From Octopus vulgaris (Eukaryota): a stretch of DNA of 64,000 nucleotides. The notes under the pieces are model-generated. The model was not told the origin of the DNA and did no database searches. It saw only the letters and a program-made list of their open reading frames with translations. This document shows, piece by piece, positions 6,673 to 27,365 of this stretch. Position 1 is the stretch's first letter. Each line of letters opens with the position of its first letter. The position numbers were made by a program, and so were the translations under genes. The stretch lies in contig OX597824.1 in assembly GCA_951406725.2 (NCBI GenBank), positions 41,788,001 through 41,852,000 on the forward strand, written 5' to 3'.

Positions 6673-7049
6673 ACGTTTATATATTTGTTGTGCAAGATTT
6701 TTTATGTGAAGTCGTGTGTTGAAACAGATATTATTATATATCGGAATGGTCATTTTGCCAGTTTAGCCAATAAAAACACACGCACTATATATTTGGTGTT
6801 ACTTTGCTTCAGTGTTATTTATTTTTTACATTAATCTTAATCTGACGGTTAGTAAGGAGAGACACAAATAAGAAAGAAGAAAACAAAGGACCACTGATGC
6901 GTTCACAGGAGTGTGACGAAAGAACTCTGGCCGAAATAAGATTAAGATTAATGTAGAAAATAAATAACACTGAAGCAAAGTAACACCAAATATATAGTGC
7001 GTGTGTTTTTATTGGCTAAACTGGCAAAATGACCATTCCGAAATATAAC
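6673..7049. mobile_element. PLE-type pseudo-LTR with about 105 bp inverted arms, inserted in (TA)n
   Basis: 6735-6841 is the reverse complement of 6941-7049; HHR in the spacer; ORF start MTIPIYNNICFNTRLHIKNLAQQ on minus from 6753. Confidence 0.8.
6888..6932 (+). ncRNA. Type I hammerhead motif (C3-G8), slightly mutated
   Basis: cca CTGATGC G TTCACA ggag TGTGAC GAA AGAACT C tgg. Confidence 0.7.
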
Positions 7050-7508
7050 ATTATATATATATATATATATATATATATATATGTGTGTGTGTGTGTGTGT
7101 GTGTGTGTGTGTGTGTGTGTGTGTGTGTTGTTGTGTGTATGTATGTATGTATGAATATATATATATATATATAAGATATATATATATATGTATGTATGTA
7201 TGTATGTGTATATATATATATGTATATATATATATATATATATATATATATATATATATATGAGATATAAGTTAGAGATATTAAAACCATCTAAGGGATA
7301 GATGTATCCAGATGCACTCCTGGTAATTACCTCAGTATGTATGGTCCTTGTTATAAGGTATACGGTAGTAGGTAATTTAAAAGGTAAACCATAGTTTAAT
7401 GTATATAAAGACGATAAGAAAATGGAGAAATAAATAACAATGAGAAGTGGATCTTTGGTGTTATAAAGCCATTATTTAATTAATTAAGATACGAGTAAGT
7501 TAGAGTAA

Positions 7509-7585
7509 GTTTACTGCTGCTTCCGTATATCAGGCTGGAGTAAATATGTATTCACCTCGTTGCAATTGATAGACATCATCAGAAG
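7509..7585 (-). ncRNA. Hammerhead motif, mutated copy
   Basis: Minus: CTGATGA...GGAAG CAGCAG TA aac; inverted twin of 9481-9557. Confidence 0.65.
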
Positions 7586-9480
7586 GAAAAAGGCAAAGAT
7601 AAATAGAAAGAGAATAGAGAGAAAGAAAGTGTAAGGAAAAAACAGGAAAAAGAAAATGTTCAATAATTCGATAGTCTTATATTTTTGTTAGGTTCAAAGT
7701 TCAATAAATCAGTTGTAGGATAGATGGGAAGTGAGTTAGTTGAATCTGAATAATTAGTTATTAACATAGCTTATACGTGTCCGTAGGTTCGGTTAGTTGA
7801 CCGCCAGTGTAGTCTCAGGGAGTTATCGCTATTGAGGATATTCGGTGTAGTTCTATGGACGTATGTGGCATTAATTTATATGTTGTAAGTTAGTTCGTAT
7901 ATTTTCAATGGAAGTCGTAATATAAGGGTAAAGTTTACCTCTAGAATCTGTACGATATAGAGTGTAAATGGACTATGTACCAGAATATTGTTTAGGTTTG
8001 AAGAGTGCATAGAAAAATGATAAGATCGAAAGGGGAAATTTATCGCGTGTAAAAAGATTTGGTAGTTTAGCTCTCAACATAAATTAAATCATAGGAAAAT
8101 AGTAAGCTAGCGTAGTATGTAGAGTAACTATAAAGTTCAGTAATTAATTTATAATGTGGGTTGGAGTTATGTAGGCTAATTAGTATGTAGGAAGGTTAAA
8201 GGGGGTAAAACGAGATTAAGTGTGTTCGCTAATAACATCTAAAATAAGGGATAGCGGTATAAGGATAAAGTGGGTTTATCGATACTTTGAGAATACGTAT
8301 AGCCTTTATGCAAACAAAAAATATTATTTTCATGTCTCCTATTAAGTAGAAGTAATTTGGCCATTAAAATAGTTTTTCGTTTATACAGAGCTCACTGCGC
8401 TTATTGCTAATGCTATCCTTGTAGTTTTTCTTGTTCTATATTTTGGAGAACCAGTTTAAGGCTTCATTTAGATCATAGTTCTAGGGCTATCATATTCTTT
8501 ATTTTAGGTATATATTTATCTAATATTAGTTTACTTAATTTACATAGATCTGAGTTATTGAGGCATTTTAATCTAACTTTCGTATCTGTTAAGAAATTTG
8601 GTTTATGGTCCTTTATTGTTATGCGGGGCCTAGAAGGTACGAAAGGTTCGGTTTTCTCCTGTATATTGTAGTTTGTCATAATGTTCTTGGTTGCTAAGTT
8701 CATAGATCTTAAAGTGTTATTGGGTGCTATTTTGTATTTTTTTTTTTTTGTAATTTCTTTATGCAACAGCTAGTAGTATAAATTAATATCCAAAATGTAT
8801 GAATTACTGGCTTTATCAGAGTGTACAATAATTTCCTTTTGCAATTTCAGTTTATATAGTAGATCTTTTAGGTTTTTTGGTAGATGCTATTCCTTAGAGG
8901 GTGTCATTTTAATTGTATTTTCTTAATAGTATCCTATATTTCGTTTTCAAAGTCGTCCAAGTGGCTGTTTCGTGGGGGTGTTTTCCTAGTTTTGAAAACG
9001 CCTTTGGTAACGTCATTGCTGCTATGGTGGTACGCCGTCTCTGCTTGGTTGTTTTTATCATGAAATAAGGCTTTCTGTCGCAAGCGGTGGGTGAAGTCGG
9101 TTAATTTGTTAGATACTTCTTTTAGATATACATTCTTATGTGGAATCGGTGTATCTTTTAAAGATGCTTCTATTGTTATTTGCTCTATTTACCAAGTATG
9201 TGCCTGCTTTATGCCTGGCTAAGACTTCTTAGTCAGAAATAAATATGTTATGTAAGATATAAGTTAGAGGTATTAAAACCATCTAAGGGATAGATGTATC
9301 CAGAGGCACTCCTGGTAATTACCTCAGTATCTATGGTCCTTGTTATAAGGTATACGGTAGCAGGTAATTTGAACCTAACTAAAATGTAAGACAATCGAAT
9401 TATTGAACATTTTCTTTTTCCTGCTTTTTCCTTACACTTTCTTTCTCTCTATTCTCTTTTTATTTATCTTTGCCTTTTTC

Positions 9481-9557
9481 GTTCTGATGATGTCTATCAA
9501 TTGCAACGAGATGAATGCATATTTATCTCAGCCTGATATACGGAAACAGCTGTAAAC
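9481..9557 (+). ncRNA. Type I hammerhead ribozyme with extended helix II
   Basis: gtt CTGATGA tgtctatca...tgatatacg GAA ACAGCTGT A aac; palindromic helix III; GUA cleavage triplet. Confidence 0.85.
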
Positions 9558-24954: not shown

Positions 24955-25212
24955 TTAAACGTAACGGCAGACGAAATACCTATTTCTTTACTACCCACAA
25001 GGAGCTAAACACAGAGAGAACACACAATGACAGACAAACGGATTAAGTCGATTATATCGACCCCAGTGCGTAACTAGTACTTATTTAATCGACTCCGAAA
25101 GGATGAAAAGCAAAGACGACCTCGGCGGAATTTGAACTCAGAATGTAACAGCAGAAAAATACGGCTACGCATTTTGCCCGGTGTGCTAACGTTTCTGCCA
25201 GCTCGCCGCCTT
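24955..25212 (-). mobile_element. SINE family B, young copy
   Basis: Reverse complement of 31539-31790. Confidence 0.9.
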
Positions 25213-25368
25213 ATATACTTGTATACCGGCAGATAGCAGGCGCCAAGCATGACGTTTCATCCGATCAAAACATTTTCTAAGACAACTGTTGACGTTGTTC
25301 TAAAAAAAAGTCTTTTTCTGAGTTGTATTGTTTAATTCATTCAGGAGTGGCATATAATTAATATATTG

Positions 25369-26726
25369 CACTTGTCAACAAAATAAAACCTTTATTCTCT
25401 GGCATAAAATCTTAGAGCTGCTTTAGACGTAATTTTGGGTGTTGATTCCAAAACTGACCTCAGATTTGCTCTATCACATCACGTTTTCGTGCCATCGGTA
25501 TATACCTTTATCTACCTGGAGCATACCAAAAGTTAACTTTACACCACTATTTGGAGGAATTTTGGCTGGATTGTAATGCTAATTTTGGATATGTTCAACC
25601 TGAGTGTTGCTTTAAAGCTCTTTCTCTTTTCTTCAGGTGTGAACTGAACCACTGTGATCTAGTTATGGTTGCAACATCAAAAGGAAGGACATGCTCTAAT
25701 GGCTCCCAATATCTTCTGCTACGTCTGTGGAAACTTCATTCCACAGGCTCAAAGGCACAACATAGCTTTGTCAAGAAAGCGTATCTTGCTCACTTGAAAG
25801 TAACACTTGGAGACCAGGACAAAACCGGGGCTCCCCCAAGAGATTGCAAAATCTGTGTTGCAACTTGGTGTGATGAAGCAATTCATCAAAGCTCTTGATC
25901 ACAATGGAAACTGTTTCAGATATATATGTACAACTTTTCCAAGCCTCAGTTACGAAAAGAAGGCAAGAATATTTGATGGACCTCAAATAAGAATACTCCT
26001 CAGGGATCCACATTTTGTTACAACAATGAATGCGGTGGAGGCCAGAGCATGGAATGCCTTCTTTGATGTGGTGTGGAATTTCCTTCAAAACAGAAAAGCT
26101 GACAGCTATCAAGAGATTGTGGAGGAAATGGTCTTGAGTTTGCATGCATTTGGATGTAGAATGAGCATTAAATTGCACTACTTACACAGTCACTTGGGTG
26201 AGATTCCAGAGAACCTAGGTGATGTTAGCGAAGAACAAGGTGAACACTTAAATTAAGCTGTATGATTAATGGACGAACGCTACCACGGCCGATGGGACTT
26301 AAACATGATAGCAGATTGCCGCTGGAGCTTGATGAGAGATATTCCAGAAGTTGTGCACAAGAAATCGTCAAAGAGGAAGATCTTGTAGTAATATAACGAT
26401 CAGATTGAATGACCACAATGAATAGTGATTCTGTATTCATATTTTGTTATCAGTAAGCACAATTCTTACATACTAATGTACATTTACTCCCACAACTTTG
26501 TATTTTGATTTATTAGGTAAATAAAAAGACATATTGTCTATTAAAAATCGCATCTACGTATATTTAATTCTTTCTTTATGAGCACTAAATAGCTGTTTCT
26601 AGCAAAAATAAAAGACTAAAAAATCTGATATGATAGAAAAAATCTGGTGCCTGATTTGGATTCAGCGCTCTAAAATTAGCTAAGAACCATTGATAAAACT
26701 TGTGCCAGAATATATGTCGACCAGTG
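25369..26726 (+). mobile_element. Chapaev3-type (CMC) DNA transposon, internally deleted
   Basis: Imperfect TIRs CACTTGTCAACA.../...TGTCGACCAGTG with about 115 bp subterminal similarity. N-terminal PNIFCYVCG and LGDQDK; C-terminal LGVMKQFIKAL, GPQIR, MSIKLHYLHSHL and ENLGDVSEEQGE. Confidence 0.85.
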
Positions 26727-27136
26727 TAATAAATACTATAATATAATAAATTTTAGCGTCAGTAATTCATTTACTTAATTTAACTTGATTAAAATGTTTC
26801 GATTAATTACTGCAGAACTAACAAAGTATTAGCTTTTATTAATGGTGATCCAGCTAATTATAATTCAGGGAAATTAGCTTAAGGAAAACCGCAGAATAGC
26901 AAAGGTCACTGCGTAATTTCAGAGTGGAAGAGAAGGAAAGGAAGGAAAATGATATAATGGGTTCATCTATATACATTTGAGAAGTATGTGTGTGTTTGTG
27001 TTTATATACGTAGTTATGTGAGTGTGTGTGTGTGCATGCATGCATGCATGTGTGTCCGTGTGTATGTACGCATCTTTGAGAATGCATGCATGTATGTTTA
27101 TATATATATATATATATATATATATATATATATATA

Positions 27137-27365
27137 AAGATTTCCTGTTGGTCAGTTCTAATTTTGGAGGTGTACTTGTATAGCAAGTGACCTGATCTGA
27201 GATCGTGTGCTGGAACGAAAATAATTGAAGCATGGAAGGTGCTTATAAACCATTTAAGAAACACACAAAAACCGTTAGATTCACTTCAACATTTAAATTC
27301 AATTTGTCAAAATATTTTCGTCGCTTTGAGACCGCGACCTGTTCACTGACAAAATTCCGTGCTGC
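27137..27365 (-). mobile_element. PLE-type pseudo-LTR remnant (HHR plus ORF start) at (TA)n
   Basis: ATG at 27253 gives MVYKHLPCFNYFRSSTRSQIRSLAIQV; abuts (TA)n. Confidence 0.7.
27303..27353 (-). ncRNA. Minimal hammerhead variant (G3-C8)
   Basis: tttgtca GTGAACA G GTCGC ggtctcaaa GCGAC GAA AATATT T tgacaaa. Confidence 0.8.

Follow-up and report, generated by a model that had tools for sequence, protein, structure and literature searches.

Three related Penelope-like element families of Octopus vulgaris carry hammerhead motifs with different Watson–Crick 3–8 pairs

Three hammerhead motifs were located in a 64,000-nucleotide stretch of the Octopus vulgaris genome (assembly GCA_951406725.2, contig OX597824.1, positions 41,788,001–41,852,000 of the forward strand; hereafter, the window). 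The units containing them, denoted U1, U2, and U3, are the pseudo-long terminal repeats (pLTRs) of three related families of Penelope-like elements (PLEs). We regard it as fairly probable that these pLTRs, each fixed for a different Watson–Crick pair between core positions 3 and 8, carry motifs that likely cut themselves slowly as dimers. All three motifs were found at the coordinates, and with the layout and cores, claimed in an initial annotation of the window (Table 1). The cores are CUGAUGC in U1, UUGAAAA in U2, and GUGAACA in U3, and each is followed by an extra G, a helix II closed by G-C, the trinucleotide GAA, a short palindromic or near-palindromic helix III, and UH; in U3, helix II consists of 5 bp and helix I of 7 bp. 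Features of the minimal hammerhead ribozyme (min-HHR) present in the units are helices I and II, U4-G5-A6, G12-A13-A14, A15.1-U16.1, H17, the palindromic helix III, and a nucleotide before position 10.1, together with a Watson–Crick 3–8 pair as in PLE min-HHRs. A literal CUGANGA box occurs in none of the three families, which have C9 (U1), a uridine at position 3 with A8 (U2), and G3 with C8 (U3).

The pair states were then counted among the copies covering both positions 3 and 8. C-G was present in 30/30 U1 copies and in 57/57 from a partly overlapping set of 60 loci picked by their open reading frame (ORF), of which 29/30 and 57/57, respectively, had C9. U-A was present in 29/30 and 24/25 U2 copies (49 examined for the latter), and G-C in 27/30 and 89/105 U3 copies (146 examined). 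Exact 17-mers with U3 flanks occurred genome-wide 7,916 times as G3-C8, 260 times as G3-G8, and 7 times as C3-G8, the last comprising 6 matches from another family and 1 U3 copy. Position 17 of U3 was U in 114/115 copies and A in 1/115, and never the C17 that is able to pair with G3. In contigs from four public runs, which bear four organism codes, no variant at or above 5% was listed at 27346 or 27341. The G3-C8 pair is thus family-wide in U3 and not a private mutation, and the cores are fixed at the family level as the initial annotation had proposed; the outcome that it named as fatal to its proposal, canonical CUGANGA consensuses with these copies as private mutants, is contradicted by both the family counts and the exact-match counts. 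Initial DNA searches gave 79 (U1), 3,788 (U2), and 2,370 (U3) candidates and peptide searches 20,895 (U2) and 11,593 (U3), none of these figures being a copy number.

These counts also bear on an explanation to which we give almost no credence, namely that the motifs resemble hammerheads by chance or are private mutations within canonical families. It could draw on two observations. The U1 copy in the window carries T at position 10.1, a minority variant (4/30 U1 copies) that caused it to be missed by the descriptor scan of the window, and no Rfam hammerhead model matched three family copies or appeared among the window matches listed (150 of 310). Against it stand the family counts, the fixed place of the motif in the pLTR, and the reversed controls: a motif descriptor with positions 3 and 8 left free gave 0 matches on the reversed sequence of the examined loci, and the reversed U3 17-mer gave 0 matches across the genome, which is 2.8 Gb in size and rich in microsatellites. 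A search of PDB sequences returned nothing useful.

The identity of the elements, taken earlier as PLEs with reverse transcriptase (RT) and GIY-YIG raised as a question, was confirmed by full-length U1 units and by homologous ORF remnants of U2 and U3. Full-length U1 units of ~4.59 kb bear the motif in each of their repeats and include an ORF of 1309 aa, which opens with the peptide that the initial annotation assigned to unit 1 and contains RT, a CX4CxxC linker, and a GIY-YIG-like motif, the first and last being read by eye. Pfam matched this ORF weakly to RVT_1 (E 1.4e-4, below the cut-off) and gave no GIY-YIG match, while PF01541 (GIY-YIG) and PF00078 were both present in its homologues P0089 and P0093. 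The best protein match to the U1 ORF was labelled Octopus vulgaris, with 100% identity over the region searched; its first 230 aa, used as a query, gave no protein match at E 0.001. U2 copies run upstream into an ORF homologous to that of U1. Most U3 copies are solo repeats of ~205 nt, with two (L009 and L185) reaching further upstream, and a search with a piece of L185 turned up remnants of an ORF (L211, L212, L236, L237, and L410), each followed downstream by a U3 motif of like orientation. The view of U3 as a solo element lacking an ORF, resembling a short interspersed element, was dropped on account of these remnants. A CX2-5CxxC linker between RT and endonuclease was found in the ORF translations of all three families, whose identities over the RT thumb–endonuclease region are 59% (U1–U2), 52% (U1–U3), and 50% (U2–U3). 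No full-length copy of U2 or U3 was found, and a search for further families with the distant relative P0034 returned U1 copies only.

The arrangement of the copies is that of PLE pLTRs, comprising direct two-pLTR units and a tandem array in U1, inverted partners in U3, and an optional tail. Copies share a 3′ end ~90 nt into the ORF and are variably truncated on the 5′ side; an inverted partner, mostly ending ~55 nt before the forward 3′ end, accompanies 74/146 U3 insertions. U1 is a young family with many intact frames of ~1310 aa at 98–100% identity (e.g., L133:1772-5698) and a tandem array of three units (G000:C19:14372093-14383384), and it is likely still active.

The three families form a single retroelement clade, as had been claimed, according to both protein trees. 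The tree of 29 proteins gave (U3,(U1,U2)) with support of 100/99, and a quick tree of 60 proteins grouped the three with an SH-aLRT (Shimodaira–Hasegawa-like approximate likelihood ratio test) value of 99; the tips are relatives without named reference elements, and cores are known for a minority of them. Among 22 related metagenome loci, an unconstrained scan found the motif in 7, with U-A in L241 and L244 and C-G in L242, L243, L247, L259, and L260. Two further loci (L245 and L249) had degenerate motifs by eye, and 13, many of them fragments, had none. Altogether, positions 3 and 8 form a Watson–Crick pair in 11/11 lineages (C-G in 7, U-A in 3, and G-C in 1), including the canonical family of the L066 flank, and none of the 11 aligned lineages has lost U4, G5, A6, or GAA. 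Pairing in 11/11 was reached by 0/500 shuffles, which ignore kinship, and slid partners showed no two-sided change. When 11 rows of 8 lineages were mapped on the tree (L259, L260, and the L066 family being left out), position 3 changed four times, position 8 four times, and the pair four times; all changes were joint. These results bear out the 3–8 covariation across families that the initial annotation had put forward.

A rather unlikely explanation is that the core drifts under relaxed constraint, with matched 3–8 bases being a coincidence fixed in a few master copies. Templates with G3-G8 did spread, further core positions vary as well, and few independent lineages were sampled. The pairing of all 11 lineages, which the shuffles and the slid controls did not reproduce, and the joint nature of all four tree changes speak against drift, and none of the motif searches placed a constraint on position 3 or 8.

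Several relatives extend this picture. An older fourth family found here (L463–L467 and L469, position ~1500), which is close to U1, shares its helix II stem, and resembles it in the N-terminal peptide, carries the canonical core CUGAAGA. This family was kept off the tree, and its core suggests that C3-G8 with A9 is ancestral; the G3-C8 pair of U3, the U3-A8 pair of U2, and the C9 of U1 are likely derived. Another repeat family here (L066:822 and L084:16) has a canonical minimal hammerhead with the core CUGACGA, an extra A, and the helix III ACGU. The metagenome motif L241:2487-2541 combines a U3-A8 pair with C9, a second A9C change besides that of U1. In L242:4963-5012, a C3-G8 hammerhead has U15.1-A16.1 in place of A15.1-U16.1, and the locus contains a frame of 1632 aa that includes a long repeat spacer. 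By eye, L245 and L249 seemingly keep U-A and C-G, respectively, and seemingly lack G5; both were excluded from the counts.

How these motifs would act may be outlined by analogy with PLE min-HHRs (PMC4209133, PMC6765202; published work is cited throughout for the portions of each source covered here). Two motifs would pair through the palindromic helix III, either in a tandem transcript or in trans, and the 3–8 pair would form as in the active hammerhead, so that the RNA would be cut after H17, 57–102 nt upstream of the ORF start. Because most copies derive from uncut RNA, selection would act on a few master elements over long times rather than on each insertion. Judged from the sequences, the self-cutting fold is likely maintained by selection.

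The 5′ ends of genomic copies were compared with the predicted cut site. In a first set of U3 copies, picked by their 3′ peptide, 10/33 of the 5′ ends inside the repeat lay within 12 nt downstream of the predicted cut; here the 12-nt interval was chosen afterwards, and 10 of the 89 loci were hand-picked. In a second set, with the interval fixed beforehand, the corresponding value was 6/18 against 2.0 expected (P 0.011), or 6/15 when insertions with inverted partners were removed, as counted by eye. This excess may reflect cleavage, the halting of RT at helix I, which is a strong stem of 7 bp, or a switch of template from one arm of that helix to the other. The 5′ ends of short copies also pile up just upstream of the motif, at AGAUGC in U3 (window position 27368, minus strand) and AGAGUC in U2 (20679, minus strand). 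The base preceding the pile-up, C in the element, is G in 23/35 free ends of U3 and 9/12 of U2, and some of these Gs stem from overlap with an inverted partner. The extra G may be the cap-derived G of a transcription start or mark a splice junction; the U3 sequence upstream of the pile-up resembles a 3′ splice site.

A number of observations weigh against slow self-cutting kept by selection. The U3 5′-end excess may equally come from the RT stop or from template switching, and U2 showed no excess after its predicted cut (3/47 against 3.8 expected). The predicted cut site lies within 94/146 U3 copies, whose 5′ ends fall upstream of the motif. G8 was present in both copies in 3/5 distinct two-copy insertions picked by G8, and likewise in L211 and L411; given G8 in both partners and the 260 exact matches to G3-G8, pair-broken RNA was retrotransposed. 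The predicted self-duplexes of helix III are weak (+2.2, −0.2, and +1.4 kcal/mol), from which it follows that cleavage would be slow or protein-dependent, and unconstrained cofolding gave no helix III dimer. U1, the youngest intact family, has A9C, and the covariation amounts to four joint changes only. From published work, in one type III hammerhead the G:C swap alone gave rescue among double mutants of the CUGA region, and in the Anolis PLE hammerhead mutants had no effect on insertion in vitro (PMC11167929).

Some of these points would also fit an explanation that we consider possible but improbable, in which the hammerhead fold, including the 3–8 pair, is kept as a structure for ORF-protein binding, RNA dimerisation, or RT pausing, with negligible cleavage in vivo. 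It would account for the derivation of most copies from uncut RNA and for the A9C of U1, the C9 of L241, the U15.1-A16.1 of L242, and the two relatives seemingly without G5. For the Anolis PLE, moreover, reads ending at the cut site are absent and insertion by catalytic mutants is normal (PMC11167929), and Cervera and de la Peña reported low activity and left room for other functions (PMC4209133). The 3–8 pair, however, belongs to the active conformation, so its retention fits catalysis better, and U4, G5, A6, and GAA are kept in every aligned lineage. We favour slow self-cutting as dimers at the strength given above.

Comparison with known systems indicates what is shared with earlier reports. 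The motifs resemble the min-HHRs described in metazoan PLE pLTRs by Cervera and de la Peña in 2014 (PMC4209133) in their pLTR location, short helix I, unpaired base that separates position 9 from 10.1, G10.1-C11.1, palindromic helix III, predicted dimer, and occurrence mostly as solo copies. That paper reports the U3-A8 pair in Schistosoma PLEs, with ~1,300 matches, while G3-C8 and C9 go unmentioned in its text covered here; its consensus has H at the extra position, which is G in 8/11 lineages of our set, and the present case differs further in having three pair states in a clade of three families from a single genome. Natural 3–8 covariation was also described by Perreault et al. in 2011 (PMC3088659), where, in the part covered, U3-A8 is the only such pair and the motifs, unlike those here, are not described as minimal ones of PLEs. 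The engineered C3G/G8C swap partly restores cleavage, including in the Anolis Poseidon PLE hammerhead (PMC11167929, PMC9901934, PMC8495972, PMC3884650). This is the swap seen in U3, made in the laboratory in those studies and present here in nature, in a family of at least 7,916 exact copies. A G3-C8 variant is reportedly worse in a C17 than in a G17 context. Slow or protein-dependent cleavage is reported for the Anolis PLE, and RT initiation 111–118 nt into the ORF explains 3′ ends of this kind in that element (PMC11167929). Tandem and inverted pLTRs with a tail were described for PLEs by Craig et al. in 2021 (PMC8557442). The octopus elements resemble the endonuclease-bearing (EN+) Neptune and Nematis PLEs of that study in having a single ORF with RT, a CX2-5CxxC linker, and GIY-YIG at its C-terminal end, tandem or inverted pLTRs, a tail at one end, and microsatellite targets, and differ in their long ORF (1309 aa, with an Asn-rich spacer) and a tail of ~55 nt against 30–40; this likeness is one of features. 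Canonical and minimal hammerhead descriptors were used in a recent preprint (10.64898/2026.07.22.740005).

The pLTR copies in the window are listed in Table 1 together with their motifs. According to the initial annotation, each motif is followed by an ATG ~50–100 nt downstream that starts a homologous peptide. The ATGs do stand 102, 74, and 57 nt after H17 in U1, U2, and U3, respectively, and the unit 1 peptide is a PLE ORF start; the unit 3 peptide showed no significant similarity to the U1 ORF or to an outgroup N-terminus. Its homology is argued from position and family linkage. The unit 1 peptide is also not the product downstream of the plus-strand motif. It is encoded by the inverted partial copy on the minus strand (6753–6681), whose N-terminus is that of the 1309-aa ORF in full-length U1 copies, and the plus-strand frame starting at 7029 is broken by (TA)n after ~9 codons. 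Other repeats in the window include long inverted repeats and a near-perfect hairpin (40971–41084, 7409–7698 with 9368–9657, and 40674–46068).

Table 1. Hammerhead motifs and pLTR copies of the three PLE families in the window.
Feature	Position	Strand	Details
U1 pLTR, inverted partial copy without hammerhead	6681..6843	−	ATG 6753, first 24 PLE ORF codons, 3′ tail
U1 pLTR, forward copy without tail	6842..7050	+	ATG 7029; (TA)n at end
U1 minimal type I hammerhead motif	6888..6932	+	C3 (6894)-G8 (6899), C9, extra G, helix III AGAACU, C17 (6927)
U2 pLTR, 5′-truncated copy	20480..20720	−	ATG 20562, 3′ end 20480
U2 minimal hammerhead motif	20633..20669	−	U3 (20666)-A8 (20661), A9, extra G, helix III AAUU, U17 (20636), helix I 3 bp
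U3 solo pLTR, ~203 nt	27166..27368	−	Starts at the family's common 5′ start; ATG 27253
U3 minimal hammerhead motif	27303..27353	−	G3 (27346)-C8 (27341), A9, extra G, helix III AAUAUU, U17 (27310)

PLE hammerheads, the natural U3-A8 pair, the extra nucleotide, the palindromic helix III, and engineered G3-C8 rescue are already known. The surprise expressed in the initial annotation was hence overstated, since the PLE U3-A8 pair, the extra nucleotide, and the palindromic helix III had been published (PMC4209133). What this locus adds is a G3-C8 family of high copy number that is regular in other respects, as well as a clade with three pair states; in the literature searched, G3-C8 was found only as an engineered pair and not in nature, the survey most concerned with variant PLE hammerheads (Lunse et al.) lying outside that coverage. 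Selection for self-cleavage, as worded earlier, is what we infer from the sequences, within the limits set by the copies that span the cut site and by the copied pair-broken templates. A stronger statement appears doubtful to us, namely that U3 is an active natural G3-C8 hammerhead undescribed in print, with ~8,000–12,000 copies in octopus genomes, that the clade is a three-state compensatory series (plus A9C) with a footprint of in vivo cutting in its 5′ ends, and that a large share of animal hammerheads is hidden from CUGANGA censuses.

These families bear on the debate of whether PLE hammerheads are kept for cleavage, given that they cut poorly in vitro and are dispensable for insertion in the sole reconstituted system. 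As the 3–8 pair is part of the active conformation, its repeated joint changes are evidence, of an evolutionary kind, that this conformation has been under selection. Natural test constructs are available from all three families, one of them young and with intact ORFs. Moreover, because three abundant families here escape the standard descriptor, positions 3, 8, and 9 are best left free in hammerhead searches.

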